A DNA stretch of 64,000 bases, from positions 14,432 through 78,431 of the IMG/VR virus record IMGVR_UViG_2885593961_000002. One strand, given 5' to 3'. The translations under genes and the position numbers were made by a program. This DNA comes from a virus. Its lineage: Duplodnaviria; Caudoviricetes. Below the pieces are notes generated by a model. That model worked only from the letters and a program-made list of their open reading frames with translations. It was not told where the DNA came from and searched no databases. Below are positions 349 through 55,951 of this stretch, piece by piece. Positions within the stretch are counted from its first letter, which is position 1. Each line of letters begins with the position of its first letter.

Positions 349-537
349 TTACCCCGCCGCTTTGTCGGCAGCTTCAGCGCCGACCAGCGCGAGCGCCATC
401 ATCGCGTGAGCCGGTTCCGCTTCGAGCATCGCCCGGAACTGGACGACGATGCTGTCGATCTTCGTGCGATCGTCTTCGGGGAGTTTCGAGATCTCATCCT
501 GAATGATGAGAAGCTGAATGCGTTCAGCAGAGGCCAT
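349..537 (-). CDS. hypothetical protein (62 aa)
   Basis: Leftward ORF preceded by ACCACCACCACAAGGATCAAAAC-ATG, a leader shared with other genes here. Confidence 0.7.
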   Translation of the reverse strand: MASAERIQLLIIQDEISKLPEDDRTKIDSIVVQFRAMLEAEPAHAMMALALVGAEAADKAAG

Positions 538-559
538 GTTTTGATCCTTGTGGTGGTGG

Positions 560-1354
560 TCACATCATGAAATCTGAAAGAATGTGGTTGATCGCCTTGT
601 CGTCATGCTGGCCAACAACCAGATGCTTCGCGATCAGTTCCGGGTCAACGTCATAGAAGCCCGTGATCTCCCACATACCCTTCAGTGCAGCTTCGTTTTC
701 CTTAACCCATGCCAACGGCTTCTTGCCGAGGTGGAAGGAACCGGCTTCGCTATCCCAACAGGGCACGTAGCCCTCGGTGAAAAACTGCATCCAGCGTTCG
801 CGGTCGCAGTGCTCCCACGCCACGTCGCCGAAACCGGGGATGCCGGTAATCTTGTCGGACTTGTCACCGACGAGCGTCTTGTACAGACGCACTTCGGTGA
901 AGTCGGTGTTGTCGTATTCGACCTTGTCGCGCCCTTCGAGCTTCGTGTGCTTGCCATCGCACAGCGCGAGGTAATCGCCATCAGTCGAATGGATGGTGAT
1001 CGAGTCCGTCTGGTCCTTGTAGAGACGATGCAGTGTGGCGATGACGTCGTCTGCCTCCCATGTCGGGATCTCAAGCGACATGCAGCGCGTGAACCGCAGC
1101 ACTTGCTTGAACAGGTCCATCGTCTTGTAGAACTCGTCTACGGCGCTTTGCCGGCCGACCTTGTATCCGGGATAGAGCGCTCGGCGTCGGTCCTTCGCGC
1201 CGTGTCCATCCCAAACCCAAATGATGGTGTCGAACATCGGCAGCATCTTCATGTCGACCAGCACGTTGCGAATCGAGCCGCTGGTTTCGAAGATGGTGCG
1301 GAAACGGTTGTTTCCGTCGATGAAATGCAAACCCATGATGACCTCGCAGGACAT
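560..1354 (-). CDS. 5'-3' exonuclease / flap endonuclease (Pol I N-terminal, T5 D15 / T4 RNase H family)
   Basis: Motifs FIDGNN, WVWDG, RRALYPGYK, EADDVIATL, STDGDY and the helix-hairpin LVGDKSDKITGIPGFG. Confidence 0.92.
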   Translation of the reverse strand: MSCEVIMGLHFIDGNNRFRTIFETSGSIRNVLVDMKMLPMFDTIIWVWDGHGAKDRRRALYPGYKVGRQSAVDEFYKTMDLFKQVLRFTRCMSLEIPTWEADDVIATLHRLYKDQTDSITIHSTDGDYLALCDGKHTKLEGRDKVEYDNTDFTEVRLYKTLVGDKSDKITGIPGFGDVAWEHCDRERWMQFFTEGYVPCWDSEAGSFHLGKKPLAWVKENEAALKGMWEITGFYDVDPELIAKHLVVGQHDDKAINHILSDFMM

Positions 1355-1387
1355 GAAAAAAGCCGCGAGCTTTTGACTCGCGGCTTT
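1355..1387 (-). terminator. intrinsic terminator
   Basis: 11-bp stem AAAGCCGCGAG/CTCGCGGCTTT (1359-1387) followed by a T run on the minus strand. Confidence 0.75.
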
Positions 1388-1403
1388 CCGTACAGCTTGT
1401 GGC

Positions 1404-2117
1404 TTACGCCGGCTCGGCTTCCGCTTCGATGCCCTGGTATTCCCAGGTCATGATGCCCCACGCGTTGTTGTTCTTGTTGGTCATCCGGAGGAAGCCAACC
1501 TTCACGTCCACGCGCTGGCCACCAGCGTTCGCTTCCATGACCTTCTGGTAGAAGTCCTGCCACGCACGCCAGTTCGTGGTCGACGTCGCGTAACCGACAC
1601 GCTGACCAGCCTTCGCCAGCACTTCACCGTCCGCGGAGACGATGTCGGCCGTCAGGATCATCGGCACGTCAGCACTGCGGTACGCGCGGGCCTTCGCGTC
1701 GAGGGCGATGGCCTTGGCTTGCGCTTCGGACCAGGGGATGCCCTTGTCGCTCGTGACGCCGTCGTACGTCGACCAGTATTGCGCCGGGTTGCCGGCTTTG
1801 ATCGACATCTTGACCATGAAGCCCGTGCCTTCCGTCATGTCGATAACCGCTTCGAACGACTGCACGAGCTTGGCGCTTGCGCCGACCTGGAGACCGAATT
1901 CCTTCGGCTTGATCCACAGATCGACGGCCATGCCCGCCGACATCAGTTGCTCCATCGAGAGCTTCTGGCCGGGAACTGCAACCGCACCGCCAGCCGCACC
2001 TACTGCTGCGACTGCCGTGCCGGTCGTCGGCGCGGCGGCTGCGCCGGCTGCTGCGTTTGCGATTGCGCCAGCTGCTGCGTCTTTGGCGCGCTGCATTGCT
2101 GCTTGGATCGGGTCCAT
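1404..2117 (-). CDS. hypothetical replication protein, possibly ssDNA-binding
   Basis: 237 aa between helicase and exonuclease; Ala-rich N-terminus and acidic tail (EAEAEPA); the SSB role is inferred from context only. Confidence 0.55.
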   Translation of the reverse strand: MDPIQAAMQRAKDAAAGAIANAAAGAAAAPTTGTAVAAVGAAGGAVAVPGQKLSMEQLMSAGMAVDLWIKPKEFGLQVGASAKLVQSFEAVIDMTEGTGFMVKMSIKAGNPAQYWSTYDGVTSDKGIPWSEAQAKAIALDAKARAYRSADVPMILTADIVSADGEVLAKAGQRVGYATSTTNWRAWQDFYQKVMEANAGGQRVDVKVGFLRMTNKNNNAWGIMTWEYQGIEAEAEPA

Positions 2118-2201
2118 ACGTTTCCTTCAAATGTTAGCTGTTTATGCGTCTGTTTCTGCTTCTGTTCTCTCGCCGTGGTGGTGGACACGTCGAGGAATAT
2201 G

Positions 2202-2230
2202 ATCGTACCTTCGTTCTACTAACTACACAA
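2202..2230 (-). promoter_or_regulatory. sigma70-like promoter for the putative SSB gene
   Basis: Minus strand TTGTGT-17 bp-TACGAT. Confidence 0.55.
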
Positions 2231-5678: not shown

Positions 5679-5906
5679 TCAGACTTTCGTGTAGGGGAAA
5701 CGAGTGGGATGCTTCTTGATGAGGCCGCTGAAGGCCGAGCCAAACGAATCGGCCGCGACCAGCTGGCCGACGAGTTCTTTCGGGACGTTGCTGTACTGAT
5801 ACTCCTCACCGTTCTTGACGAAAACGATGTTGAGCTGCTGATTTTTTTCGTTATAGGCAAATGCGGAGATCTGCGACGAGGTCACAGACGTGTAGCCAGA
5901 TTTCAT
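5679..5906 (-). CDS. KTSC-domain protein
   Basis: VTSSQISAFAYN...LNIVFVKNGEEYQYSNVP..LV..L..ADSFGSAF matches the KTSC pattern. Confidence 0.85.
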   Translation of the reverse strand: MKSGYTSVTSSQISAFAYNEKNQQLNIVFVKNGEEYQYSNVPKELVGQLVAADSFGSAFSGLIKKHPTRFPYTKV

Positions 5907-6021
5907 GTTTCGATCTCTTATAGATTGAAGGTTGCTGTTCAGGTGGTGGTGGCACCCGCTCTACTACGAAGAGCCTTTACGGGACGCGTGGTGGTGACAC
6001 GCTTACCGTGCGGCTTTACTA

Positions 6022-6285: not shown

Positions 6286-6491
6286 GTTGCAGCCCTCCAG
6301 CCGTCACGCCAAAAGGTCCAGTAGCGGTGAACTTCCGAGTTGAGATAGCCATCGTCCTGCGGATCACGTTCGAGCGACAGTCCTTCGAGCCATTCGTGCT
6401 GCTCGAACTCACGGCGCATCCGGTCGTTCTCAGCGGCCTCGTGTGCAGCAGCGGCAATCGCGAGATTGCGTGCCAGCGGTGATTGACTCAT
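6282..6491 (-). CDS. hypothetical protein (69 aa)
   Basis: Coupled to both neighbours by 4-bp overlaps. Confidence 0.7.
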   Translation of the reverse strand: MSQSPLARNLAIAAAAHEAAENDRMRREFEQHEWLEGLSLERDPQDDGYLNSEVHRYWTFWRDGWRAAT

Positions 6492-6757
6492 GCCGTCACC
6501 TTCGTGCGTCGGAGTTCATCACGCAGACGCTTCAGGCGTGCAATCTGCTGCTTGCTCAAGAGACCTGAGCTGATTGTGTTTTTGACTGCCGAGAACCACG
6601 TGTCGCGAGAAATCGGCGACTCGTTCCCTTGACTGTCGGCGACGTTGACGTTTGCGAATTTCCGGAGAGCTTCCCCGGTCTTGATCAGGGCGTCGACTGC
6701 TTTCGGTACATCGGCCAGTGGGTGCGGTCTTGCCTCAGTGGTGGTGGTGAGGTTCAT
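6488..6757 (-). CDS. hypothetical protein
   Basis: Start trimmed to MNLTTTTE, overlapping the upstream stop. Confidence 0.65.
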   Translation of the reverse strand: MNLTTTTEARPHPLADVPKAVDALIKTGEALRKFANVNVADSQGNESPISRDTWFSAVKNTISSGLLSKQQIARLKRLRDELRRTKVTA

Positions 6758-8782: not shown

Positions 8783-9193
8783 TTACTGCGACTTCAGCAG
8801 CGTCGGTTGGAGCTTGTAGTGCTTCGAGAGGTACGTCAGGATCGCGTCGCCGTGCTCCGCGAGGTTGGCCAGCAGCTGCTCTTCGGTCGCTGCGACCGGC
8901 AGAGCGTAACCTTCGGTGATCACGGTGCCGTCCGCGCCCTTCACCGCCTCGATGTGAACCGGCTTCACGCCGTGCAGCATGAGGCCAGCGATCTTCTTCA
9001 GCGACGTGGTACGCTCGGCGACGAACGCTTCACGGGCCTTCTGCTGCTCCTGGAAACGGGCTTCGTCCGCGGCCGACCAGTTCGATGCAGCCTTCGGAGC
9101 GCCGCGCAGAGCGCGCGGGGACTTGCCGTCGTTGCCGCCCTTGTTCTTCTTCGGAGCAGCGGAGTTCTTGGTCGTGGTGGTGGTGGGTTCCAT
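8783..9193 (-). CDS. hypothetical protein
   Basis: AAGGA RBS 7 nt before MEPTTTTT. Confidence 0.7.
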   Translation of the reverse strand: MEPTTTTTKNSAAPKKNKGGNDGKSPRALRGAPKAASNWSAADEARFQEQQKAREAFVAERTTSLKKIAGLMLHGVKPVHIEAVKGADGTVITEGYALPVAATEEQLLANLAEHGDAILTYLSKHYKLQPTLLKSQ

Positions 9194-9254: not shown

Positions 9255-9635
9255 TCAGGTACGGCCTCTCATCGACACGGGTAGCAATCCCGCAGCAATG
9301 AGATGGTTCAGGACGACAGCCGGCGTGGAGACCGGGAACGTCCTGACACATTCGCTGAGACCCAGTGCGATGGCATCGATGGCCTTTTTACGCACGGTCG
9401 CAGCTTCAGCTTCGCTGGGTCGCGGGAGGTAAGGCACGAGCGCGCGGCAGATCTGCTCGGCCCGCTCAATCAGCCCGTCCGTGATGTCGGTCTCGCTGAT
9501 GTCGCGATAAGCAAACGTGCTCACGACGGCTTCGACAGACGCCCGCTGATGGGCCTCTACTTCTTCCTTGCGCGATGCCAGTTCGCGCAGCAGACGCTCG
9601 TCGTCGTCCGTCCAGGTTGTGGTGGTGGTGGTCAT
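9255..9635 (-). CDS. hypothetical protein (126 aa)
   Basis: Starts MTTTTTTW. Confidence 0.7.
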   Translation of the reverse strand: MTTTTTTWTDDDERLLRELASRKEEVEAHQRASVEAVVSTFAYRDISETDITDGLIERAEQICRALVPYLPRPSEAEAATVRKKAIDAIALGLSECVRTFPVSTPAVVLNHLIAAGLLPVSMRGRT

Positions 9636-12587: not shown

Positions 12588-12661
12588 CGTTGTGGTGGTG
12601 GATTGTTAGCGTTTCGGTGAACGAGGGTCGTGGCCAGACGCGCCTCGTTCAACTTGAACTT

Positions 12662-12892
12662 TCAAATGGCAGCTGCCATCGACGCTTGCGCTTCGCGCTG
12701 GTATTGGCGATCGTCCTCAGAGACATGTGCCGCCAAGCGTGTTTCGCGTGCTTCGAGCTTCGCGACTTCCGCCTGGAAATGTTCCAGTGCGCCGCGCGCT
12801 TCGAGCAGCGCGAGGCGCGTCATGCGCAATTGGTTCTTCGCTTCCTTAGCAGGCGACTTTCCCGTGAACATCGTGATGATTGCACTCAACAT
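12662..12892 (-). CDS. small coiled-coil protein
   Basis: GAGGT RBS before MLSAII; heptad-like LEARGALEHFQAEVAKLEARE. Confidence 0.7.
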   Translation of the reverse strand: MLSAIITMFTGKSPAKEAKNQLRMTRLALLEARGALEHFQAEVAKLEARETRLAAHVSEDDRQYQREAQASMAAAI

Positions 12893-12914
12893 GGTGGTTA
12901 CCTCGGTGTGGTGG

Positions 12915-13187
12915 TTATGCTTTCCGCTCGATACAGAGGAGGTAGCGAATCTCCCCAACGCGCGTTGCCATAACTGCTGTGAAAAGGTTTGTACTGAACT
13001 TCGAGTCGCGCATTTCCGCCGGCCTGCGGCTGGCAGGGGTATTGATGGTCCGCATCAACTGCGGATAGCCCTCAACAGTCGTCTCTATGTAGTGCCGTTC
13101 GCCTACTTCCATCATGGATAGCATTTCGTTCCATGATCCGGCTCTTACTCCGTAGGACTTTCGAGGACTAACGTCCGTCTTTTTCAT
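12915..13187 (-). CDS. hypothetical protein (90 aa)
   Basis: Abuts neighbours. Confidence 0.65.
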   Translation of the reverse strand: MKKTDVSPRKSYGVRAGSWNEMLSMMEVGERHYIETTVEGYPQLMRTINTPASRRPAEMRDSKFSTNLFTAVMATRVGEIRYLLCIERKA

Positions 13188-16593: not shown

Positions 16594-16616
16594 GATGTGT
16601 GGTGGTGATGGGGGTA

Positions 16617-17064: not shown

Positions 17065-17280
17065 CTATGCGGCAGTGGTTTCGGGAGCGCATCGACCCCA
17101 ATTGCTGACGACCTTGTGACTGGTCGCCGTCGTGCGCTCGACATAGCCATACGCGCCCTCGTTGGCAAGCTGCTTGGCATGGGTTTCTGCATTCTTCTGC
17201 GAGCGGAATTCCCGGACGCGGTACTTGCCGCCTTGCGTCGTGAAGCGGGTGCGATAGATCGGCTTGCTCATATTTTTCAC
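17065..17280 (-). CDS. hypothetical basic protein (71 aa)
   Basis: Overlaps neighbour. Confidence 0.65.
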   Translation of the reverse strand: MKNMSKPIYRTRFTTQGGKYRVREFRSQKNAETHAKQLANEGAYGYVERTTATSHKVVSNWGRCAPETTAA

Positions 17281-18912: not shown

Positions 18913-19218
18913 TCAGAAGACGTACTCGTCGTTGTGGTAGACGGTCAGCACCACCGGGGTGTCGGCCGTCATGTACGGGTTGTAGGCGATACCCGTAACC
19001 TTTGCTCCGGTCTCGCGTTCGAATCGAGCGATCGTCTTTCTGATGTGGTCGCTCAACTGAAACTGGAGAATGTCACGAGCGAACTTCACTTCTCGCTTCG
19101 TGTAAGGGGTAGGTTCAGGTTGAATCGTTGCGTTGGCGATCAGCTTGTCGATAGCGACAACGGCAGCGGTGTTTGCGTCATCGTCCTTCGTGATCGGGGC
19201 CAGTTCTTGCGTGCTCAT
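18913..19218 (-). CDS. hypothetical protein
   Basis: Leader CACCACCACCACGCAGGATCAAAAC-ATG. Confidence 0.7.
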   Translation of the reverse strand: MSTQELAPITKDDDANTAAVVAIDKLIANATIQPEPTPYTKREVKFARDILQFQLSDHIRKTIARFERETGAKVTGIAYNPYMTADTPVVLTVYHNDEYVF

Positions 19219-19243
19219 GTTTTGATCCTGCGTGGTGGTGGTG

Positions 19244-19420
19244 TTAGCTTGCCCGGTACTCCGGGTACATCTGAGCAATTTCGGATCGACTCGTGACCGT
19301 GTAGTCGTCGTGCATCCAACGGCCGATAAAGCTCTGCGCGTCGGCTGCGGAGTCGAAACCCGCGACGATGAATTTCGTCTTGCGGTTGATCACGTAATAC
19401 GGGAAGTTGGGGTTGGTCAC
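19244..19420 (-). CDS. small hypothetical protein (58 aa, absent from ORF track)
   Basis: Translated by hand: MTNPNFPYYVINRKTKFIVAGFDSAADAQSFIGRWMHDDYTVTSRSEIAQMYPEYRAS; GTGA overlap with the upstream stop. Confidence 0.65.
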   Translation of the reverse strand: MTNPNFPYYVINRKTKFIVAGFDSAADAQSFIGRWMHDDYTVTSRSEIAQMYPEYRAS

Positions 19421-20061
19421 GCCGGCACTCCCTCGCGCTCCTCTCGCACTCTGTCGTAGCTCGGGTCGCTGTACTTCGCGAAGAGATGCGGAAACGCTTC
19501 TTCGATCCGTCGACAGTTCGACATGTCAGCGTTGATCCATGCGTGGGCCAGTTTCCGAGCAAACTCGCCGGCGAAGTCGCGCATGTTGAATGCCATGCGC
19601 TGCCGCTCAGCGTAGGACCGCGACGAGATCGGATGCGGGCGTTGCTTCAGGCACATGCGACCGTGCTGTGCGTACATGGCAGCAAGACGCTGCTCGTGTG
19701 TCTCCTGCATGCCAGCAAAATGCTCGAGCATCGCCGTCAGGTGGAGAATCACGTCACGCTCGTTGAGCGATTCAGCTCGATCAGTCACGGTGCGTTGATC
19801 CTCCAGCTCGTAATACCAAGCCTTGCGTAGATGCGGGCCGTCTTGATGGTTCTTGATCACCATGCCGCACTGCTTGGCCATGTTGTCGATGAGCACGTCG
19901 AGCGGCAGGTTCACGTCGCGTTGTTCATCGTTCAGCTGCTCGAACACGCTTGCAGTAAGCACAATCTGCATCGCTCGTTCGACGTATGGTGCGCGCTGGC
20001 CAGCGTCGCTCATCATCTCTTCGAAACTTTCAAACGGGCCGTAGGTGGTGGTGTTGCCCAT
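19417..20061 (-). CDS. hypothetical protein (214 aa)
   Basis: C-terminal AGEFARKLAHAWINADMSNCRRIEEAFP motif. Confidence 0.75.
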   Translation of the reverse strand: MGNTTTYGPFESFEEMMSDAGQRAPYVERAMQIVLTASVFEQLNDEQRDVNLPLDVLIDNMAKQCGMVIKNHQDGPHLRKAWYYELEDQRTVTDRAESLNERDVILHLTAMLEHFAGMQETHEQRLAAMYAQHGRMCLKQRPHPISSRSYAERQRMAFNMRDFAGEFARKLAHAWINADMSNCRRIEEAFPHLFAKYSDPSYDRVREEREGVPA

Positions 20062-20378: not shown

Positions 20379-20669
20379 TCAGCTGTAGACCGGCTCCAGC
20401 GGCAGATGCGTAGCCGCGTTGCTGAACTCCTGCAACACGTCACGGATGACTCTTGCGTTGCGTCGATTGAGAACCAGCGTTGCGCACATGCGATCGAACG
20501 TTGCCTGCTCGATCTTGCTCGTGATCGCGCCGTGCTCTTCCTGATAGAACTTCAACAGGCGCTGCCTCAATTTCGCCGGCACCGTGGTCGAGCATTCGTG
20601 TTCGGCACATTCGCGCTGCGTGGCGAACTCCCTGCCGTCCGAACTGGTGTACTTGCGGATCTCACGCAT
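20379..20669 (-). CDS. hypothetical protein (96 aa)
   Basis: Y.SSDGREF.TQREC..HE; N-terminus resembles that of the next gene. Confidence 0.7.
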   Translation of the reverse strand: MREIRKYTSSDGREFATQRECAEHECSTTVPAKLRQRLLKFYQEEHGAITSKIEQATFDRMCATLVLNRRNARVIRDVLQEFSNAATHLPLEPVYS

Positions 20670-20672: not shown

Positions 20673-20987
20673 TCACCCCAGGATCGATTGCGACTGGGAA
20701 CGCTCGGTGGCCTGCTGCACGAGTTCCAACCCGTCGAGTTCGAGCCTGCCACTCTTGATCTGCTCAAGAATCTTCTCGACTTGCTGGAGGTTGTTGATGA
20801 CCCCGTCGACGATCTTCATCAGCGGCTCGTCCTGCAACGCAACGCCGCACGACGCCTTCGCGTACTCATCGTTGATGATCTGCGCGAGGTTGTCGGGTAA
20901 TACCACGGTCACTTCGTGGCGCAATGCCTCGACGTAATTGGTGAACTGCCGGCCATCGGCCGTCACATATGTCTCGATAGTCTTCAT
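20673..20987 (-). CDS. hypothetical protein (104 aa)
   Basis: YVTADGRQFTNYVEALRHE; preceded by CCCACCACC. Confidence 0.7.
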   Translation of the reverse strand: MKTIETYVTADGRQFTNYVEALRHEVTVVLPDNLAQIINDEYAKASCGVALQDEPLMKIVDGVINNLQQVEKILEQIKSGRLELDGLELVQQATERSQSQSILG

Positions 20988-21026
20988 GGTGGTGGGTTCT
21001 CTTCAGGGAATGCAGGCCGATCTCTG

Positions 21027-21183: not shown

Positions 21184-21591
21184 TCAAGTTGAACCTATCG
21201 GGTGTGGGTCGACGCCTTGAAACAACGCGTGATGAAAGACGTCGTGCAGGTAATCCTTGATGCTGTTCCGGTTTCGGCCAGTGATCCGGATAACAGCCCC
21301 CGTTTCCAGCGATGGCGTGACGATCACGTGGTGTTCCGACCATCCGTCGTACATCCCGTGTCCGTTCATGTGGTGAAAATCAGCTTGAAATACCAGCTTG
21401 TTGCTCTTGCATTCGCCTTCGAGCAGTTGCGTGCCCGAGTCAAGGCCCGAGCCTGAAGGAAGCATGTCGAGCAGCTTTCGGAGGTGCGCTTCGTGGTTTG
21501 GCAGGAAGGAGCTGCGTGCGGACTTGCAGCGCTCGATAGTCGCGAGCGTGGACGCAATCGCGGCATAAAGCGGCATGGTGGTGGTGTGCAT
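21184..21591 (-). CDS. hypothetical phage protein (135 aa)
   Basis: LPSGSGLDSG...FHHMNGHGMYDGWSEH.V.VTPSL motif. Confidence 0.75.
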   Translation of the reverse strand: MHTTTMPLYAAIASTLATIERCKSARSSFLPNHEAHLRKLLDMLPSGSGLDSGTQLLEGECKSNKLVFQADFHHMNGHGMYDGWSEHHVIVTPSLETGAVIRITGRNRNSIKDYLHDVFHHALFQGVDPHPIGST

Positions 21592-21715
21592 GATTCCTAG
21601 CGGAATGGTTTTGCCAGAGGCTCTATATGCCGCTGGCGTTGTTTTAGGCTAGGTGGGTATACGGGAGATCCCGCAGTGCCCGCCTGGGCCTGGGAAAACG
21701 GTCTGGCCCGGAGAT

Positions 21716-22111
21716 TCAGCCGAAGATGTGCGCCCACACTCCGATCACGGCCAGTATCACGGTCGCGAGAGCGCACAGTCTGCCGATGGTGCGATCGGCG
21801 GAATCAGCGGAAGCCAGCTCGCGAGCGGTGAGTTCCACCCGGACGTTCCAGCCGCGGATGGTTCGAGTCGTCGAGACCGTGGTCGTCCGCACATAGGCTC
21901 GGGCGTCATACAGCGAAGGTGCAAGTTGCACGTTTCGCGGAGCACGAGCTGGAGCGAGGACGACGAGCGCGCGGCCTGCTACTGGAGCACGAGCTAGAGC
22001 ACGAGCTGGAGCGGTAGCGAGCAACGCGTTTCTTTGAGCGGTCTCGATTACTTGCTGCGAGGGGGACAAGCATATCCGGTTTACAGGTGTAATTTTCATT
22101 GTCTTTGGCAT
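21716..22111 (-). CDS. possible membrane-anchored protein
   Basis: C-terminal hydrophobic helix; Ala/Pro/Arg repeats; start uncertain. Confidence 0.35.
   Translation of the reverse strand: MPKTMKITPVNRICLSPSQQVIETAQRNALLATAPARALARAPVAGRALVVLAPARAPRNVQLAPSLYDARAYVRTTTVSTTRTIRGWNVRVELTARELASADSADRTIGRLCALATVILAVIGVWAHIFG
21940..22013. repeat. three copies of GAGCACGAGCT
   Basis: At 21940, 21985 and 21997; the first and third extend to 17 bp. Confidence 0.85.
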
Positions 22112-22162
22112 TTATCGTATAGACGCGACAGAAACGCGATTCGGTAGCGCGTCGCAAATTCA

Positions 22163-22269
22163 GAGGGGACAAGGATGGAGGTCTGATTCGTTTCTTATAT
22201 AAAACTAGAACTATCAGATAGATGCGATCTCGCAATGAAGTCGACTTTGGCGCTCATCCTTGTCCCCTC
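22163..22269. repeat. 15-bp perfect inverted repeat around an AT-rich 77-bp spacer
   Basis: GAGGGGACAAGGATG (22163-22177) and CATCCTTGTCCCCTC (22255-22269). Confidence 0.9.
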
Positions 22270-22550
22270 CCTTTTCTTCTTCGGAACGGAAAGAGAAAGA
22301 GAAAAAGAAGAGAAGTTAAATAGCTAAGTCATTGATTACAGACGACAAACCAACACAACTATCAGATAGTTGCCGCTGCGCTTTGCACCCCTCCTGGCCA
22401 TTGACCGGAGCTGGAGTTGGAGGGGGCGTGGTAGCGGACTAGGGACAAGGAAAATTATGTTGTATAGAAACAACATAGTTTCAGGTGCCGGGTTACGCTC
22501 CGCACATTCGCTACCGCTCCCACAAAATCTCCCGGTCCAACTATCAGATA
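22209..22550 (+). repeat. three direct copies of AACTATCAGATA
   Basis: 22209-22220, 22357-22368, 22539-22550. Confidence 0.9.
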
Positions 22551-22702
22551 TATGTGCGCGTTTCGCGTAACGCGGAATACCGCACGATTAACCATTTCGG
22601 TTCAAGTTGAACGTTTGCACTCGCTTTATTTCCCACTTATCGAATGCGCCCCATACCAATAACGACACGATCGCCAATGCCGCTACCGCTCCCGCGACCA
22701 TG

Positions 22703-23083: not shown

Positions 23084-23322
23084 CGGAATTCTCCGGATAG
23101 TTCAACTTGCACTTTTCATCCAGTTTCCCGATCAAGCCGCCTACTGGGCGCTACTATGCCTGCCGCAGAGGCATGACCGGATTCATGGATGTGAAGGTGC
23201 CCTTGCGACCGGCGCGTAAGCGGTAGCGCCGGCCCCCTATAGGGCGAAGAAAAAGGAACGACTCACGCCACCACGCGCGAGCCGTTCAAACCTGCCCAGT
23301 CTGGCAACTGGGCGGGGTTGAC

Positions 23323-25122: not shown

Positions 25123-25306
25123 GACAGGTACAGTTAACAAAGTGCTTGATGATCTGTGGTGGTGAGTCAAGCATGACAGGTTGAGAGACTTGTCTCAGAC
25201 AGTCGAGGTGGCCAGCCTCACTGTCAGCCCTCTTCAGGGGCATGTTTTGATCAATGTTAGCTGTTAGGTCGCCCCGAGGATTAGCTACCCTCGGGGCGAT
25301 TTTTTT
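25123..25306 (+). ncRNA. candidate structured RNA (3' UTR-derived) with a GUGGUGGUGAG loop
   Basis: Hairpins at 25143-25173 and 25198-25225, ending in a strong terminator; expression not shown. Confidence 0.3.
25269..25306 (+). terminator. intrinsic terminator
   Basis: TCGCCCCGAGG/CCTCGGGGCGA stem followed by T7. Confidence 0.85.
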
Positions 25307-27874: not shown

Positions 27875-28415
27875 TCGAAGACTCTTGTGTGGTGGTGGGC
27901 GTAGCGTCATCATCCGAACGACGAGTGGTGATTGCGCTGCGCAAGCGCTCCATGACCTCGGTACGCTGATCCGGCGACATGCACTCTTCCATGATGCTCA
28001 GTACCGTGTCCTGGAAGTCCCGGATCTGCTTGATCCCCAGTGCGCGCTCCCGAGCTGTCACCAAACGTTCGAGAAGACTGGTCGCCGTGCGGAAATAAGC
28101 CATGCGCTCCGTCTGGTCGGATTGAGGGATGGTCTTTCCGTAGTTCTTGAGGTCGGTGAAGACTCGATACAAGTCGATGTCGAGACTCGAATCGATCTGG
28201 TCTTCGGTGATCTCGAAATCCGCTATGTCAACCTTCTTCTGCTCAGGTTGAATCTGACGACGGATCAAGTTCGAGATCACTTTCTTGAATTCAGCACCGT
28301 AAGGGCATGCTTCATCGTCGAGGTAGGCCGCGTTCTCCGTGGCCAGGGTAAGGATCATCTTGATCGACCACTCCACGTGATCGGTGATGACCGGATAGTG
28401 AAAGTCGTTGCTCAT
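27864..28415 (-). CDS. putative terminase small subunit (inverted orientation)
   Basis: 183 aa, helical; C-terminal IRDFQDTVLSIMEECMSPDQRTEVMERLR resembles TerS tails; adjacent to terL. Confidence 0.4.
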   Translation of the reverse strand: MSNDFHYPVITDHVEWSIKMILTLATENAAYLDDEACPYGAEFKKVISNLIRRQIQPEQKKVDIADFEITEDQIDSSLDIDLYRVFTDLKNYGKTIPQSDQTERMAYFRTATSLLERLVTARERALGIKQIRDFQDTVLSIMEECMSPDQRTEVMERLRSAITTRRSDDDATPTTTQESSNEN

Positions 28416-28620: not shown

Positions 28621-30405
28621 ATGTCCAACCAGTATCTCCAACAGCTCTACGAACGCGCAGCGAACCGCTGGTCGAAAGACCGCGCGTCAATGACCTATGG
28701 CGACTGGATCTGCGAGAACACCACGCACAACGACAGAGCTTTCTCGTTCAAGCGTTATCCCTTCCAGAAGCAGATCGCGGACGACATGCACGACAACCTC
28801 GACTGCATTAAGCCGTCTCAGGTTGGCCTGACCGAAGTGCAGATCCGGAAGGTGCTCGCGTTCATTGCTCGCAACCGCGGTGTAAATGTCATCTACACGC
28901 TGCCCGACGAGGCCATGATGGAGCGGATCTCTGTCGGCCGCGTTCGCCCACTCGTCGACGAGGAGCACGCATTCAACCTCGAATCACTCGGCGGCAAGAA
29001 GCCGACGCGCACGAAGGAGATCATTCAAGTCGGCAAAAGCTTCCTCTACCTCACCGCTGCCGGCGAAGGTGCGGCGACGTCCATCTCCGCAGACATGGTC
29101 GTCAACGACGAAGTGGATTTGACTGATCAGTCGATGCTTGCCCTCTTCAACTCGCGACTTCAAGGCTCAGACTGGAAGCTGAATCACCGCTTTTCGACGC
29201 CAACCTTCCAGGACTACGGCATCGACCAGACGTTCAAGGTCAGCGACCAGCACGAGTACATGTTGAAGTGCGCCTGCTGCAACCACTGGCAGGTGCCCGA
29301 CTTCGAGCGCCCGTTCGTACGAATCCCTGGCCTTCCCGACAGTCTGGATTTCGAGGAGATCGAAGAGGCGATGATCGACGCCGGCACGATCGACCTCGAC
29401 GCCGTCTCCATCCACTGCGAGCATTGTGGCGCGCCGCTGAACCTTGGTGACCATGAGCGCCGCGCATGGGTGCCGAAGTACCCGCAGCGCAAGCATGCGC
29501 GCGGCTATCGCGTGCGCGCCTTCTCTACCGAACGCCTACCGCCGAAGTACATCCTGCGTCAGCTCTTCATCTACAAGCGCAAGGACTTCATCCGCGGCTG
29601 GTACAACACCGTGCTCGGTCGCTCCCACACGGGGGGCGACCAGCGCCTGAATGACGCGGACATCAACGCGGCGTTCACCGAGTTTCAACTGGTCCGCCCG
29701 TCGAACAATGCGATGCCGGCGTGGCTTGGCATAGACATTGGTCAGACCTGCCACATCGTCGTCGGCGAAGGCTATGACGTGTCTTCGATTCATGTGGTCG
29801 AGTTCCTAACCGTTCCTGTCGGCCGCTTGCTTGAGGAGATCGCGCGCATCCTGACGACCTACCGCCTCGTTGCCGGTGGCTGTGACCGTCACCCGTACAC
29901 GCCTACCGCTGAGGCAGTGCGCGACGCGTCCCATCGCCGCGTCCTGCCGAACGAGTACCGCGGCTCCAAGGAAATCAATCTCGTGAAGGACCCCGCCGGC
30001 GAGATCACACACATGCAATCCAACCGGACGCTCCTCCTCGACGAAGTGGCCCGAGCCATCCGGCTGCGCAAGATCAAGTTCTCCGGTTACGGGACGCACC
30101 GCTCGGCGATCGTTGAGCACCTGAAAGACATGGTTCGCAACGAAGAACCAGAGAAAGAAGCGGAATGGAAGAAGCTGAACGGTAACGATCACTTCTTCCA
30201 TGCCTTGGGCTTCATGTTGTCTGCCGTGAAGCTACACACCACCAACGCATCCGCCCTCTTCAACACGGAAACGCGCAGTGTCATCCAGATCGTCGGCGCG
30301 ACCGTGGGCATCAACGAGACCAGTCAACTCACGCTGGCCAATACCAAACACACCACTGGCAACTTGATCTATGGCAACGACCACCACCCGCAACTCTTCT
30401 TCTAA
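28621..30405 (+). CDS. terL: terminase large subunit, lambda gpA type
   Basis: KPSQVGLTE, VIYTLP, NDEVD, FSTPT, CACCNHWQ and CEHCGAP Zn motifs, GIDIG nuclease, NDHFFHA. Confidence 0.92.
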   Translation: MSNQYLQQLYERAANRWSKDRASMTYGDWICENTTHNDRAFSFKRYPFQKQIADDMHDNLDCIKPSQVGLTEVQIRKVLAFIARNRGVNVIYTLPDEAMMERISVGRVRPLVDEEHAFNLESLGGKKPTRTKEIIQVGKSFLYLTAAGEGAATSISADMVVNDEVDLTDQSMLALFNSRLQGSDWKLNHRFSTPTFQDYGIDQTFKVSDQHEYMLKCACCNHWQVPDFERPFVRIPGLPDSLDFEEIEEAMIDAGTIDLDAVSIHCEHCGAPLNLGDHERRAWVPKYPQRKHARGYRVRAFSTERLPPKYILRQLFIYKRKDFIRGWYNTVLGRSHTGGDQRLNDADINAAFTEFQLVRPSNNAMPAWLGIDIGQTCHIVVGEGYDVSSIHVVEFLTVPVGRLLEEIARILTTYRLVAGGCDRHPYTPTAEAVRDASHRRVLPNEYRGSKEINLVKDPAGEITHMQSNRTLLLDEVARAIRLRKIKFSGYGTHRSAIVEHLKDMVRNEEPEKEAEWKKLNGNDHFFHALGFMLSAVKLHTTNASALFNTETRSVIQIVGATVGINETSQLTLANTKHTTGNLIYGNDHHPQLFF

Positions 30406-32033: not shown

Positions 32034-33161
32034 ATGGCTAAGAGCGTTCCGATCACACCGAGAATTCAGAATCTGATCACCCGCAACAACGGGGGTGATC
32101 AGGTCGACTTCAACGCGATCGTCGTATTCGAAGCCTCGGTCACTAACACGCGCCCGCTGACGAAGCCCGGTTCGATTTTCGACAAAGGCCAGATCCAGGT
32201 TGACACGCTCAACCAGATGGCCAGCTATCTGAATAGCGGCGGCTTTGTCCCCCTCCAGACCCTTCACCCGAACGGAGACGAACTCCCCCTCGGTCGATTC
32301 TTCTACGGCGAAGTCCTCCCGTCGACGCTCGGCGACGGATCGAGCGAACTGGTCTGCCTCTTTTACCTGCCGAAAGACGATCCGAATGTCGCGAAGCTCG
32401 ACAACGGGATCATCGACGAGGTCAGCGTAGGGTTTGTCGGCCAACAGCTGCTCTGTTCGAAGTGCAGTTGGGACTGGCGTGGCCCCGACGCCAGCTTCTC
32501 GAACTTCTACGACCGCGTGTGCGGCAATGATCACGTGCTCGGCGAAGACGGCGCGTATCTGAAGATCAACGGGCTGGATCGATGGACTGAAACGTCGCTC
32601 GTGTCGAAAGGCGCAGCGAACAACGCGAAGATTTTGGGCCGCACGAAGCAGCGGCTCGGCCAAGAGCAGTATGACCGCTTGGCAGCTTCGGGCGTCGCAC
32701 CCGAGCATTTGATGCTGATTGCCACCACCACCACATCCCCTCGGAGTACGACGAAGATGGATAAGGAACTGATCGAAGAGCTGGCCAACCTGAAGGCGGG
32801 CCAGAAGATTCACGAACACACGATTTCGCTGAAAGAAGCGGAAATCGCGGCGCTCAAGACGACCAACGAGGCGTTGAGCACCGAGAACAAGACGCTGAAG
32901 GAAGGTACGGAGCTGAAGGCAGCGCAAACCTCGCTGGCCGAGTCGCAAGCGAAGGTGACGGAGCTGGAAGCTTCGGCAAAGACTGCTGAAACCGAGGTCG
33001 CCGATCTGAAGGCGAAGCTCGCGACCGCAGAAGCGCAGGTTGAAGTCCTGAAAGCGGGTGCCGGCAACGGTGGCCGCTCGCAAGGGTCCGATACCGGCAC
33101 TGGTGCAACGAAGGGGACGACGCTTCACGCGTCGAGCGCGTTCAAGTCCGCGCCGCGTTAA
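32034..33161 (+). CDS. prohead protease-scaffold protein
   Basis: DEVSVGF and ETSLVSKGA protease motifs; C-terminal coiled coil. Confidence 0.8.
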   Translation: MAKSVPITPRIQNLITRNNGGDQVDFNAIVVFEASVTNTRPLTKPGSIFDKGQIQVDTLNQMASYLNSGGFVPLQTLHPNGDELPLGRFFYGEVLPSTLGDGSSELVCLFYLPKDDPNVAKLDNGIIDEVSVGFVGQQLLCSKCSWDWRGPDASFSNFYDRVCGNDHVLGEDGAYLKINGLDRWTETSLVSKGAANNAKILGRTKQRLGQEQYDRLAASGVAPEHLMLIATTTTSPRSTTKMDKELIEELANLKAGQKIHEHTISLKEAEIAALKTTNEALSTENKTLKEGTELKAAQTSLAESQAKVTELEASAKTAETEVADLKAKLATAEAQVEVLKAGAGNGGRSQGSDTGTGATKGTTLHASSAFKSAPR

Positions 33162-33188: not shown

Positions 33189-33611
33189 ATGAGCAACGCT
33201 ATCGGTAACGGCGTCTCCCTTCGTGGTCTCTACGATGAGGATTCGCAGTATCCGTTCAACCTGGCCGCGGGCATCAAGAAAGGTCAGGACGAAGGCAAGG
33301 CAGTGTCGATCGACCCGACCGCGCCCAATACGGTGAAGCTGGCCGGCGACGGTGATCTGCTCGCCGGCCGACTCGAAACGATCGAAAACCGCGTGACCGA
33401 AGGCCTGAACGTCGGCACCGTCTCGCTGGAAGGTGGCCTCGACTTCCTGGTCAAAGCGGGCTACGCCGCGACGCCGGGTGACCGCCTCGTCGGCGGTGGC
33501 GGCGGCACGGTTCGCAAGGCCGACCCTGCGAAGGACGCATTCGGTGGTTACTCGCCGTGGTGCGTCGTCGAAGTGCTGGCCAGCGGCAACGTGGTCGCGA
33601 TCGAGCTGTAA
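33189..33611 (+). CDS. head decoration / cement protein
   Basis: 140 aa, Gly-rich beta-type sequence, between protease and capsid; GAGAGG RBS. Confidence 0.65.
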   Translation: MSNAIGNGVSLRGLYDEDSQYPFNLAAGIKKGQDEGKAVSIDPTAPNTVKLAGDGDLLAGRLETIENRVTEGLNVGTVSLEGGLDFLVKAGYAATPGDRLVGGGGGTVRKADPAKDAFGGYSPWCVVEVLASGNVVAIEL

Positions 33612-33736
33612 AGAATGGCGGCAGATGACCTCGCCCACCACCGGGTTCATCTGCTGGAAGAGCTGCAAAACCCTCGTCAATTCCGACCACCACCGGGCTG
33701 ACGAAGGTTCAAAAACAACTGACAACGGATCAAAAC

Positions 33737-34930
33737 ATGGCAGATCTGATCGACATCGAACGCCGCGCACCTGCGGAAGTTCTCGCCGGCCTCAAACCGG
33801 ACGACACCACCGACGTCCAGCGCTCGATCAACGCTGGCCAGCGCCTCGTGCGCCTCGCCGCAGACTCGGGCCTCAACCTGCGTGACTATCTCACGCTCGC
33901 GATCGACCCGCGCCGTGCCGACGACGCAGGCCGCTACGATGGCCTGAACGGCTACGAAGCTGCGCTCGCCTACCTCAACCTGCCCGTCCGCCAGGATCTC
34001 TCGCAAGGCGTCCTGCTGCAAGCTGCATCGGAAACGTTCCAGACGTATCCGGGCACCCGCGCGATGTTCCCGGAAGTCATGGACGACATCCTGCGCTGGA
34101 AGAACCGCCAGGACCAGATCGAACAGGTCGCTCCGCTCGTCGCGCAGTCGCGCACGATCAACGGCACCGAGATGATCTCGACGTTCGTCGAAGACGACTC
34201 GAACGAGCGCACGACGCATACGATCCCGGAACTGGGCCGCATCCCGGTTCGCACGATCCGCACGTCGCAGCAGACGGTCGGCATCTTCAAGCACGGCTCG
34301 GGCTATCGTACCTCGTACGAATTCAACCGCCGTGCTTCGCTCGACATCATGACGCCGTTTGCAGCGCGCGTCGGCCGCGAGCTGGAGATCTCGAAGGTGC
34401 GCGCCGCGACGGCCATCCTGATCAACGGCGACGGCGTCAATGGTGCAGCTGGCGTGGTCAAGGTATCGGACTTCGGCGGCGATGCCACCAAGGCATTCTC
34501 GTCGAACTACAAGGCGCTCGCGAAGTGGCTCATGGCCCGCGCGAAGGCTGGCTACCCGATCGACACGATTATCGGCAACTACGACATGTTCGTAGAGCTG
34601 CTGTTCATGTTCCAGCCGGTGACGGGCATCTCGGGCGCGCATGCGACCGATATCGAAGCGCTGGTTGCGCAAGGTACGCCGAAGATCAACACCCAGGTCC
34701 CGATCCTCAACCAGTCGGTGAACTTCCACCTGTCGTCGGCGGTGCCGGAAGGAAAGCTGGTCGGCTTCACGAAGGCTGAAACGCTGGAAGAGCTGATCGA
34801 AGCCGGCTCGAACATCTCGGAAAACGAGCGTTCGATCCTGAACCAGTCGATCACCTACGTGCGTACGGAAAACACCGGCTACAAGCTGGCGTTCCCGGAC
34901 ACGCGCCAAGTCCTCGACGTGACCGCGTAA
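33737..34930 (+). CDS. major capsid protein (HK97 fold expected)
   Basis: 397 aa in canonical position, strongly biased codons, followed by a terminator. Confidence 0.88.
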   Translation: MADLIDIERRAPAEVLAGLKPDDTTDVQRSINAGQRLVRLAADSGLNLRDYLTLAIDPRRADDAGRYDGLNGYEAALAYLNLPVRQDLSQGVLLQAASETFQTYPGTRAMFPEVMDDILRWKNRQDQIEQVAPLVAQSRTINGTEMISTFVEDDSNERTTHTIPELGRIPVRTIRTSQQTVGIFKHGSGYRTSYEFNRRASLDIMTPFAARVGRELEISKVRAATAILINGDGVNGAAGVVKVSDFGGDATKAFSSNYKALAKWLMARAKAGYPIDTIIGNYDMFVELLFMFQPVTGISGAHATDIEALVAQGTPKINTQVPILNQSVNFHLSSAVPEGKLVGFTKAETLEELIEAGSNISENERSILNQSITYVRTENTGYKLAFPDTRQVLDVTA

Positions 34931-38957: not shown

Positions 38958-39359
38958 ATGTCGACCACCACCACGCGACAAGCCCCGCCCGCAAAACTCG
39001 AAATCACCCTGGCCGGCGCGAAGAAGATCTTGTTCATGTCCTTTGGCTTGCTCAATGAACTGTGCCGAGGTATTGGAGATGCTCAAGGCGCGTTGCAAGT
39101 CACCGCGAACTCTCAACTTCGCGATTTTGTACTGATGGTTGTGCTTTCCGATCGAGACGAAGAAGGTAACGTCGTCAAGCCGATCAACGTCAATCGCATC
39201 GAGATGTCCATCGAAGACGGTGAACGCCTGCTCGACTGGGTATCGCAGCACGCGACAGATTTTTTCGTCCGGACGATGGAGAGAATCGTCACGGGGCACA
39301 AGGACAAGGAAAGCCGGTTGAAGGCCCTGAAAGAGCTGGCCGAAAACCCGGCAAGCTAA
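38958..39359 (+). CDS. tail assembly chaperone (gpG-like)
   Basis: Between major tail and tape measure genes; slippery AAACCCG near its end. Confidence 0.8.
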   Translation: MSTTTTRQAPPAKLEITLAGAKKILFMSFGLLNELCRGIGDAQGALQVTANSQLRDFVLMVVLSDRDEEGNVVKPINVNRIEMSIEDGERLLDWVSQHATDFFVRTMERIVTGHKDKESRLKALKELAENPAS

Positions 39360-51936: not shown

Positions 51937-51962
51937 TCGGTTTGCTAACGGACACCACCACG

Positions 51963-54138: not shown

Positions 54139-55487
54139 CCACCTTCCGCCTGAAGACGGTCGACGCCTCCGGAGTCGGCCGTGACTTTTTCTACAACAAC
54201 CAACGAAGCACCCTCACCGACCAGCGTGGTTGCGACGTCGTGTCCGAGCGTCCGAGCGAGCCGCGCGCGCCGGCCGCGCCCCCTGGGCGTAAAGACCGCG
54301 TTGTTCGCACGCTGAAGATCCAGCTCGGCCTGTCGTGCAACTACAGCTGCGAATACTGCTCGCAACGATTCGTGCCGCACGCGGACCAAGCCAACCCCGG
54401 CGACGTCGACGTGTTCATGTCCCATCTCACGGCAAACTGCTATCTCACCGAGGACGCGACGGTCGAGTTTTGGGGTGGCGAGCCAATGGTGTACTGGAAG
54501 ACGCTGAAACCGCTCGCTGAGCGGCTGCGGATGCGTTACCCAGGCGTCACCCTTCGGATGATCACGAACGGCTCTCTGATCGATCACATGAAGGCTGGAT
54601 GGCTCATTTCGATGGGGTTCACGGTCGGCATCTCGCACGACGGGCCGGGGCAGAAGGCACGAGGTCAAGACCCCCTCGATAACCCCTTGACGCGGGAAGC
54701 GATCCTGATGCTGTACCAGCGCCTGCGCCCGCTGAACCGGATCTCCTTCAACGCGATGCTGCACAAGGAAAGCACGTCGCGACTCGCGGTGCGCGACTAC
54801 TTCATCAAGCTGACGGGCGACACCGAAGTACCGATCGGAGAAGGCATGTTCGTCGACGCGTACGACGAAGGTGGCCGCTCGATGTCGTTTCACGACACGC
54901 ACGAGCACGTCCGCTACCGCGCTCGCGCCTTCGACGAGCTGAAGAGCGGCAACGCACTCAATTTCGACAGCGTCACGCAGAAAATCGTGGACTTCGGCGA
55001 GTCCGTGGTCACTCGGCGCGAAGCACGCACGCTCGGCCAGAAGTGCGGAAGCGACCGCGCTGACACCCTGACGATGGACCTAAAGGGCAACGTGCTGACG
55101 TGTCAGAACGTGTCGGCGGTAGCGGTTGCGCCGAACGGCCAGCCTCATCTCGCCGGCAACGTTCAGGACATGGACGCAGTCCAGCTCAAGTCCTCGCGCC
55201 ACTGGTCGACCCGCGAACACTGCAACTCGTGCCCCGTGCTTCAGCTCTGCAAAGGTAGCTGCATGTTCCTCGAAGGCGACTTGTGGGATGTCACCTGCGA
55301 GAGCGCGTACAGCGATAACGTCGTATTTATGGCCACGGCTCTCTACGAGCTGACCGGCTGCACACTTCAGCGTATCGAGCCGCTAACCGGCACGCTGCCT
55401 GAGCATCGCCAGATCGTCTTCGGACCTCTGGCCAACAAGCGGACCACCACCCGCAAAATCATTCAGATCAAAACGGAAACACCATGA
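54135..55487 (+). CDS. radical SAM enzyme with SPASM domain
   Basis: CNYSCEYC, EFWGGEP, MITNGSL, ISHDG; SPASM KCG...DLKGNVLTCQN...CNSCPVLQLCKGSC...C. Confidence 0.95.
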   Translation: MTTFRLKTVDASGVGRDFFYNNQRSTLTDQRGCDVVSERPSEPRAPAAPPGRKDRVVRTLKIQLGLSCNYSCEYCSQRFVPHADQANPGDVDVFMSHLTANCYLTEDATVEFWGGEPMVYWKTLKPLAERLRMRYPGVTLRMITNGSLIDHMKAGWLISMGFTVGISHDGPGQKARGQDPLDNPLTREAILMLYQRLRPLNRISFNAMLHKESTSRLAVRDYFIKLTGDTEVPIGEGMFVDAYDEGGRSMSFHDTHEHVRYRARAFDELKSGNALNFDSVTQKIVDFGESVVTRREARTLGQKCGSDRADTLTMDLKGNVLTCQNVSAVAVAPNGQPHLAGNVQDMDAVQLKSSRHWSTREHCNSCPVLQLCKGSCMFLEGDLWDVTCESAYSDNVVFMATALYELTGCTLQRIEPLTGTLPEHRQIVFGPLANKRTTTRKIIQIKTETP

Positions 55488-55825
55488 GCGATCAACAAGC
55501 TACCCCCCTGATGAACGAAGGCCAGATGATGCACCACGTGCTGACGCAACAGCGCAATGAGCTGGCGGATCGCCTCGCTCACGCGAGCGTTGCAGCGGGT
55601 CAAGCCGAACAGCAATTGCAAGCTCTGGCTTCGGCAAACGCAACTCTGCAATCTGTGCTCGACGAGGCGAATGCCGCGCTCGAAGCGACGAAGAGCGCGC
55701 TGGTCGAGAGCCAATCGCGCGCCCATCGGCTTCAAATGAGCCTCGACGACGCCAACCGGAAGCTTTCCGCGCAGCCGCGTTCGGTTGAAGCCGCCCCCTC
55801 GTCGGTTGATCCGATACCCGCGTAA
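55484..55825 (+). CDS. coiled-coil protein (113 aa)
   Basis: Heptad-rich; 4-bp overlap with the radical SAM gene. Confidence 0.75.
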   Translation: MSDQQATPLMNEGQMMHHVLTQQRNELADRLAHASVAAGQAEQQLQALASANATLQSVLDEANAALEATKSALVESQSRAHRLQMSLDDANRKLSAQPRSVEAAPSSVDPIPA

Positions 55826-55839
55826 CTACATGAAGTTGG

Positions 55840-55873
55840 TGCTAAGTGAACCACTTAGGTTCACTTAGCATTT
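55840..55873 (+). terminator. 13-bp perfect hairpin closing the fibre unit
   Basis: TGCTAAGTGAACC-ACTTA-GGTTCACTTAGCA followed by TTT; short U tract. Confidence 0.55.
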
Positions 55874-55888
55874 CGAGTGCAAAACTCT

Positions 55889-55918
55889 TTGTGTCTGCGT
55901 AAACCCCAACCTTAAAAT
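55889..55918 (+). promoter_or_regulatory. sigma70-like lysis promoter
   Basis: TTGTGT-18-TAAAAT preceded by AAAACTC. Confidence 0.5.
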
Positions 55919-55951
55919 TCTCGGCACTCACCACCACCACACGAGTCCGAG

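Follow-up and report, generated by a model that had tools for sequence, protein, structure and literature searches.

Start codons in a group of Burkholderia phages are marked by a short word with the core CCACCAC, which is free of G and U on the messenger RNA (mRNA) strand and usually lies within 8–15 nt of ACC repeats. We describe it here from a 64,000-nucleotide stretch (below, the window) that comprises bases 14,432–78,431 of virus record IMGVR_UViG_2885593961_000002, 78,431 bp in total (G+C 58%). The word adjoins about one quarter of the start codons in this group, and it is a real, conserved, clade-specific, start-associated RNA word. Its agreement with gene direction, its clustering around the ribosome footprint, its predicted single-strandedness, its conservation among orthologs and its absence from the orthologs of a sister phage and from the starts of a host sample point to an RNA-level signal specific to the phage clade. 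Because it is mostly placed where the usual ribosome-binding site is weak, the word looks like a private translation-start signal, and we consider it rather probable that the tracts are cis-acting mRNA elements aiding Shine-Dalgarno-independent initiation at uncoupled genes.

The phage encodes a large terminase, a portal, a major head protein, a 1,952-amino-acid (aa) tape measure, a central tail fibre, a P4-type primase and a helicase, with minus-strand genes up to about window position 28,400 and plus-strand genes beyond. In a protein search its head protein was 75% identical to that of Achromobacter siphophage JWF; a near-identity DNA search of public phage records gave no match, and IMG/VR contains relatives at graded distances. 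A 95% relative sits in a contig of Burkholderia paludis MSh1, which makes Burkholderia the very probable host. Six whole relatives (G001–G005 and G011) were compared with the phage under study (G000). Head-protein identity to G000 is 95% for G001 and 79–84% for G002–G005 and G011; median protein identity is ∼60–65% for G002–G005. JWF and a more distant relative, G012, served as outgroups, a 400-kb sample of one Burkholderia chromosome as the host background, and 16S ribosomal RNA (rRNA) was taken from a Burkholderia genus-mate of B. paludis. Genes were called with a self-trained hexamer model and starts by coding score plus Shine-Dalgarno score, the motif never being used; start calls in G011 are poorer than in the other genomes.

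A tract was defined as a perfect ACC-periodic run of at least 8 nt. The whole genome holds 37, of which 31 are in the window. Thirty-five of the 37 are sense to the local genes and two antisense, and a gene at the far left that is on the plus strand, unlike the rest of its arm, has the motif in its own sense; an initial annotation of this stretch, made by a model from the letters and open reading frames (ORFs), had taken the flip of orientation with gene direction as a sign of RNA-level function, and this stands. Between −55 and +15 of a predicted start on the same strand lie 22 of the 37, where ∼1.5 would be expected from area. The initial annotation had also predicted enrichment at starts over codon-shuffled controls, and we find it: in 200 shuffles, which permuted synonymous codons within each gene and dinucleotides between genes and so preserved proteins and codon usage, tracts per genome averaged 11.1 (maximum 19) and those near starts 3.7 (maximum 7). 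Relative G002 agrees with G000 in this test.

All 21 sites that the initial annotation listed hold a sense ACC-periodic tract of 8–14 nt, at 0–4 nt from the position given. The one at 32722 is not at an annotated start, and those at 2178 and 5991 are 67–90 nt upstream of theirs. Hand curation adds four sites to the start class: 38964, after ATG 38958; 55443, before ATG 55484; 51953, abutting ATG 51963; and 32722, 35 nt before a conserved internal ATG. About two-thirds of start-linked tracts are non-coding, and many fill the short gap between a stop codon and the next ATG.

The word also emerges from a scan of all 7-mers in regions from −40 to +20 of starts. ACCACCA, CACCACC and CCACCAC take the top three ranks, each present in 18–20 of 91 start regions against an expectation of 1.6–1.8 (P from 1e-13 to 1e-15), and ACC-periodic 7-mers outrank Shine-Dalgarno-like words, AAGGATC included. 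With five genomes pooled, 134 of 279 occurrences of CCACCAC (48%) are near starts, the expectation being 4.5%. One-letter variants are clearly enriched only if CACCAC is left intact or if the altered letter is the second (CTACCAC) or one of the last three (CCACAAC, CCACCAT); the variant CCATCAC, near starts in 5 of 59 cases (8% against the same 4.5%), is barely enriched. We found no description of the word in the literature on JWF-like or Burkholderia phages. A scan of IMG/VR for CCGNCCACCACCGGG returned more than 114 single unrelated matches and was uninformative.

Tracts begin most often at −21 to −30, just 5′ of the Shine-Dalgarno place. Further peaks are at −6 to −15, where the tract replaces the Shine-Dalgarno site or runs into the ATG, at +3 to +9, and at −46 to −55, where it is mostly in hairpin loops; the first three groups fall inside or just 5′ of the 30S footprint. 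Pairing with the 16S 3′ end is weak or absent at 76 of 105 starts with a tract versus 136 of 408 others (odds ratio 0.19, P = 6e-13), and this anticorrelation has the same trend in every genome. Genes with a tract are rarely coupled to the preceding gene, as the upstream gap is 5 nt or less at 15 of 105 such starts versus 187 of 407 others; the median gap is 68 nt versus 10 nt. The predicted probability of being unpaired averages 0.81 for the word versus 0.68 for composition-matched 7-mers near starts.

Where the tract is coding, the nucleotide word leaves an imprint on the protein. All 22 tracts beginning at +3 to +15 in five pooled genomes are in the frame that reads ACC, threonine; the other two frames, which would give runs of proline or histidine, are presumably not tolerated. 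As anticipated by the initial annotation, threonines at codons 2–8 use ACC more than those elsewhere (53% versus 32%, P = 2e-4), although ACG is the commonest threonine codon genome-wide. The threonine framing of every coding tract and this preference for ACC mean that the N-terminal threonine runs are the coding imprint of a nucleotide word. Threonine is enriched in codons 2–8 of JWF too.

Conservation in related phages, likewise proposed, was confirmed among relatives of ∼60–65% protein identity: at orthologous starts the tract persists while its flanks, length and exact place drift. Genomes G001–G005 have 34–41 tracts each, 15–24 of them near starts, and in G011 the pattern is clearly positive by eye. 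The JWF orthologs are without the tract, and JWF has 15 tracts in all, one near a start; G012 has 10, two near starts. The 400-kb Burkholderia sample holds 31 tracts, two of them near starts, which at 0.78 per 10 kb is six-fold rarer than in the phage, and shows no strand bias (14 antisense versus 11 sense).

Some copies of the word are displayed in hairpin loops. Stems closing the tract are 2–4 times more frequent than with shuffled flanks, and a covariance model finds ∼3–5 such hairpins per genome, none in the host sample and marginal ones in JWF. At so few sites per genome, hairpin display appears real but confined to a minority, and the description 'often in a hairpin loop' in the initial annotation was overstated. 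The motif hairpins are without a U-run, unlike the ordinary terminators of these phages.

One such place is the leader of the capsid gene, which we take to be the most expressed gene. Two strong hairpins (−17 to −29 kcal/mol) lie between gene 33189–33611 and the capsid gene, which has a weak site, ACGGATC, besides these two CCACCAC hairpins; an extra linear tract is present in G005 and a further, shorter CACCAC-type run in G002. Among relatives the stems are completely different, and the 8-nt loops are always NCCACCAC closed by G-C. A covariation set joined the capsid-leader hairpins to an orthologous hairpin that precedes a gene of DNA metabolism outside the window. In it 88.7% of cells are paired and six of seven pairs have changed on both sides; none of 500 shuffles scored as high, and no slid register reaches the score.

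Of the five hairpins named by the initial annotation, conservation is seen for those at 33683 (the second capsid-leader hairpin) and 55439, whose stems carry compensatory changes or are extended (that at 55439 has a 5-bp stem in G005), and that at 38959 is not conserved. Relative G001 (95%) retains the 16-nt string at 2174; G002 and G004 have the string at other loci, as a GTG start with GGATCAAAAC before it. In the KTSC-gene leader of G002 and G004 a hairpin with a CCACCAC loop is kept on different stems.

Under the preferred explanation, a single-stranded word with a CCACCAC core, sitting 5′ of, in place of, or 3′ of the start codon and at some genes displayed in the 8-nt loop of an upstream hairpin, would help 30S subunits to load and start at uncoupled genes with little or no Shine-Dalgarno pairing. 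It would be a natural C/A-repeat standby or enhancer site that the clade has fixed into one sequence, and might be read by ribosomal protein S1, by the 30S subunit directly or by a factor specific to the clade. We infer from sequence both the rise in initiation and the range of readers. What favours a positive cis-acting element is that position, strand, single-strandedness, replacement of the Shine-Dalgarno site, the uncoupled genes and the copies at the capsid gene all fit. The weak Shine-Dalgarno sites, the uncoupled genes and the marking of the capsid gene also make a constitutive positive initiation signal a better fit than a repression target of the GcvB or RegA type.

Several points weigh against this explanation. 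All start codons are predictions, and pooled P values overstate independence because the compared genomes are related. Hairpins 50–100 nt upstream of starts are not obvious standby sites. A plain 'unstructured' role does not require one exact word, and here the word is exact: A/C-only runs of at least 8 nt near starts number 41 in this phage and 41 in JWF, and are ∼3-fold enriched near starts in the host sample, so that a C/A-rich leader is general background, and the ACC-periodic share of the near-start runs is 24 of 41 here, 3 of 41 in JWF and 3 of 45 in the host. In this clade, then, what is elsewhere a generic C/A-rich leader has become sharpened into a single word. The loop word, moreover, is invariant in 19 of 19 hairpins with covarying stems. 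An exact word and invariant loops argue for a sequence-specific reader, and none was found in the searches made.

The main rival, which overlaps the explanation just given and which we regard as possible though clearly less probable, makes the word the binding site of a dedicated trans-acting protein, of phage or Burkholderia, that sets translation or mRNA stability in the manner of RegA or CsrA. It would account for the replacement of JWF's heterogeneous A/C runs by one word, for the invariant NCCACCAC loops on covarying stems, for the hairpin at 55439 that all six genomes conserve, and for a clade-specific word that does not mark starts in the host sample. Only two genes match the motif in phyletic pattern (the last two rows of Table 1): each of the seven motif-bearing genomes has them, and JWF and G012 do not. 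Both are candidate readers. Since the same split also separates host ranges, and the pattern comes from nine genomes, we treat them as no more than leads. Searches of Pfam and PHROGs with 25 small or clade-restricted proteins recognized no RNA-binding family. The smaller candidate is modelled with confidence (predicted local distance difference test score 82) as beta-beta-alpha-beta-beta; Foldseek found no match to the model in the PDB at E 0.001 or better, and in the protein atlas sub-threshold leads only. A repressor, in addition, would not predict weak Shine-Dalgarno sites or sites at the capsid gene. The KTSC gene, with two hairpins upstream, is not supported as a reader, as motif-free JWF also has a KTSC gene; the only functional comment that we found on KTSC concerns DNA binding (PMC9503650). 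A more specific and rather unlikely version would make CCACCAC a private start code, in which a clade-specific factor (the 68-aa or the 96-aa protein could be this factor) binds the single-stranded word, whether linear or in an 8-nt loop, and delivers ribosomes to phage mRNAs that have no Shine-Dalgarno site; if true, the phages would have a translation channel independent of host-type ribosome-binding sites.

An RNA reader is much less probable. The initial annotation spoke of a regulon read by a protein or an RNA, of which the RNA-level start signal stands, and no reader emerged from searches of phage RNA, 16S rRNA and protein families. Burkholderia 16S rRNA contains no complement of 7 nt or more (no GGUGGUG, GUGGUGG or UGGUGGU), only 5-mers, and Shine-Dalgarno-like pairing of the word with 16S rRNA is thus ruled out at that length. 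A G/U-rich small RNA of phage or host, with a GcvB-like seed GGUGGUGG pairing to the tracts, has a precedent in that C/A-rich enhancers are GcvB targets in enteric bacteria (PMC3879156). A candidate was seen at window ∼23250–23295, where the minus-strand transcript would form a terminator-like hairpin with a U-run and a loop, GUGGUGG, exactly complementary to CCACCAC; G000 and G001 have this hairpin and G002–G005 do not. The six phage genomes share no conserved GGT-periodic element of at least 7 nt or GGUGGUGG-type RNA (host small RNAs were not searched), only two of the 37 tracts are antisense, and Rfam and tRNA scans of the window gave no matches. Since C pairs only with G and A only with U, no wobble freedom could hide a seed. 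We hold this reading to be very improbable.

Slightly less credible still is a polar signal at the DNA level, such as a promoter element, a Chi-like signal (GGTGGTGG resembles GCTGGTGG) or a motif for replication or packaging polarity. Orientation does flip where the divergent gene arms meet, and ∼10 of 76 upstream tracts lie 5–17 nt after a TATAAT-like hexamer. Such a signal is at odds with the concentration of about half of the CCACCAC copies in the 4.5% of sequence adjoining starts, with the single frame of the 22 tracts in first codons, with the many tracts in short stop-to-ATG gaps, with the far-left plus-strand gene that keeps the motif in its own sense, and with stem covariation, which fits RNA hairpins. 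A Chi-like or other general host signal was rejected, because the rarity and the lack of strand bias of tracts in the host sample show that this is not a frequent host word as Chi would be.

Equally improbable is that the tracts have no function of their own, being slippage-prone ACC microsatellites in A/C-rich leaders or a by-product of selection for N-terminal poly-threonine: tracts do vary in length (from 8 to 16 nt among orthologs, and 48 nt, as (CAC)16, in G011) and the threonine enrichment is seen in JWF too, but the tracts persist at orthologous sites across ∼60–65% protein identity while JWF and G012 are without them, loops are invariant on covarying stems, tracts are almost exclusively sense and largely non-coding at starts, and ACC is used in place of the commoner ACG.

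C/A-rich leaders and start-linked words have precedents. The poly(CAA) leader omega of tobacco mosaic virus (TMV) reportedly replaces the Shine-Dalgarno site in E. coli via ribosomal protein S1. Like omega, the phage word is a G-free C/A triplet repeat; omega differs as the single 5′ leader of a plant virus, tested heterologously, with a CAA and not an ACC repeat. Among regulators, T4 RegA acts at start regions and CsrA at GGA in hairpin loops and Shine-Dalgarno sites, and both are repressors. Their regulons resemble the present one in that a short single-stranded word lies at many start regions, sometimes in loops. The differences are that those words are read by a known protein which represses, whereas the gene set and the weak Shine-Dalgarno sites of the phage suggest activation.

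The nearest described phenomenon is that of the start-associated sequences (SAS) and extended SAS (ESAS) of Cluster K mycobacteriophages, and the nearest mechanism a C/A-rich standby or enhancer site. SAS is an asymmetric word with 11–19 copies per genome, in one orientation, adjoining starts (Pope et al. 2011, PMC3203893). Different subclusters have kept it, at genes from diverse families, the host has hardly any copies, and it has been proposed to act in translation initiation (PMC3203893). The phage word shares the single orientation, the link to starts, the conservation across lineages and the rarity in the host. SAS is, however, a 13-bp word with an AGGAG Shine-Dalgarno core, 3–7 bp before the start and in the non-structural half of the genome only (PMC3203893), whereas the phage word has no G, cannot pair with the anti-Shine-Dalgarno sequence, anticorrelates with Shine-Dalgarno strength, and occurs from −55 to +15, first codons and hairpin loops included, in both gene arms.

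As to mechanism, 5′ tails of CA repeats are single-stranded ribosome standby sites that strongly raise initiation, with a maximum at 16–18 nt (PMC5934652), and translation is enhanced by ACA motifs at variable distances upstream of the Shine-Dalgarno site (PMC3879156). The phage word is similarly G-poor, predicted to be single-stranded, flexibly spaced and of similar length. Those tails were engineered, and the ACA motifs come from individual genes and vary in sequence; the phages, by contrast, have one exact triplet-repeat word at about a quarter of the clade's genes, in codons and loops as well, and it is, unlike those systems, a presumed enhancer.

Start-linked private phage words such as SAS have been unexplained since 2011, and the present case is unusually clean, with sister lineages that do without the word (JWF and G012), two clade-restricted candidate genes, and linear as well as hairpin-loop forms. 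It could show how Shine-Dalgarno-independent initiation is organized genome-wide in a proteobacterial phage and could yield a compact translation element for Burkholderia expression work; recognition of the word would improve the annotation of start codons and nested genes, for example at the internal start 32757. Sites in the window are collected in Table 1.

Table 1. Start-linked tracts and hairpins in the window, followed by the two clade-restricted genes (window coordinates)
Position (strand)	Element	Context
550..560 (-)	ACCACCACCAC directly 5′ of AAGGATCAAAAC	Begins 23 nt before ATG 537; 12–14 nt tract in G002–G004 orthologs
2175..2184 (-)	CCACCACCAC in CGTG/CACG hairpin	67 nt before ATG 2117; structure-model match E ∼0.01
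5942..5996 (-)	Two tracts, 5942–5952 and 5988–5996, each in a short hairpin	Leader of KTSC-domain gene 5679–5906
6738..6749 (-)	CACCACCACCAC = codons 3–6, Thr frame	Gene 6488–6757; ATG overlaps end of upstream gene
9174..9186 (-)	CCACCACCACCAC = codons 3–7	Gene 8783–9193
9619..9632 (-)	ACCACCACCACCAC = codons 2–6	Gene 9255–9635
12592..12601 (-)	CCACCACCAC in Shine-Dalgarno place	Begins 14 nt before ATG 12587
12893..12915 (-)	ACCACCAC (12908–12915) and ACCACCA abutting ATG 12892	11–16 nt tracts in orthologs
16599..16607 (-)	CACCACCAC, no Shine-Dalgarno site	Begins 14 nt before ATG 16593
19232..19243 (-)	CACCACCACCAC directly after upstream stop	Begins 25 nt before ATG 19218
20044..20053 (-)	CACCACCACC = codons 3–6	Gene 19417–20061; tract at codons 2–5 in G003 and G005 orthologs
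20987..20995 (-)	CCACCACCA running into ATG 20987, no Shine-Dalgarno site	
21576..21586 (-)	CACCACCACCA between in-frame ATGs 21591 and 21576	
27889..27898 (-)	CCACCACCAC	Begins 24 nt before primase ATG 27874; kept in G002, G004, G005; absent from JWF
30380..30388 (+)	ACCACCACC = codons 4–6 of portal gene	ATG 30371
32722..32734 (+)	CCACCACCACCAC inside gene 32034–33161	35 nt before in-frame internal ATG 32757 (MDKE..., coiled-coil tail)
33621..33655 (+)	Capsid-leader hairpin 1, 8-nt loop CCCACCAC	
33673..33707 (+)	Capsid-leader hairpin 2, loop ACCACCAC	51 nt before ATG 33737
38964..38974 (+)	ACCACCACCAC = codons 3–6 of ORF 38958–39359	Orthologue of JWF tape-measure chaperone gp019
51953..51961 (+)	CACCACCAC ending 2 nt before ATG 51963	Kept in G002–G005
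55439..55454 (+)	GCGG-ACCACCAC-CCGC hairpin	41 nt before ATG 55484; kept in all six genomes
55929..55940 (+)	CACCACCACCAC	Begins 23 nt before ATG 55952 (Glyco_hydro_19 endolysin-like gene); 11 nt after TAAAAT
17065-17271 (-)	Clade-restricted gene	68 aa, basic, isoelectric point 10.1
20379-20669 (-)	Clade-restricted gene	96 aa

At ORF 38958–39359, the ATG is flanked by a tract on one side or on both in relatives, and ATG 51963 is probably where the fibre gene truly starts. Upstream of the orthologue of gene 12662–12892, G011 carries a 48-nt (CAC)16 microsatellite (L196, G011:C1:69464-69511, minus strand); since the same site has 8–16 nt in other genomes, tract length changes by slippage.

Other signals adjoin some tracts. 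TATAAT-like −10 boxes occur 5–11 nt upstream of some, as at L056:10383-10420 (genome 10371-10420, minus strand) and in relatives G002–G004, and transcription from these boxes would place the mRNA 5′ end at the ACC tract or shortly ahead of it. A second start-linked word, (A)AGGATCAAAAC, stands directly before the ATG at no fewer than seven genes, the capsid gene among them (window 526–540, 19207–19221, 33726–33740 and others), and relatives keep GGATCRAAAC. AAGGATC is present in seven start regions against 0.44 expected. The second word looks like the clade's preferred ribosome-binding site, and in many cases it comes after an ACC tract. In the early arm of G002–G005 the order is CACCACCAC, AAC, a GTGCR-N-YGCAC palindrome with a U-run, GGATC and ATG; the palindrome could be a small RNA hairpin.

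Two stretches of more than 1 kb, at window 21592–22702 and 24082–25354, contain no gene that passes the coding model. The tract at 25156 (minus strand) is followed by ATC, where relative G011 has ATG at the same place, so a start may have been lost here. Gene 32034–33161 (plus strand) is scaffold-like and coiled-coil in its C-terminal third, which two in-frame ATGs, 32712 and 32757, precede. All relatives, and JWF too, conserve ATG 32757 (MDKE), which has GGAG upstream as well as the ACC tract 35 nt upstream. The arrangement suggests that window 32712–33161 is a nested scaffold gene like that of lambda C/Nu3.

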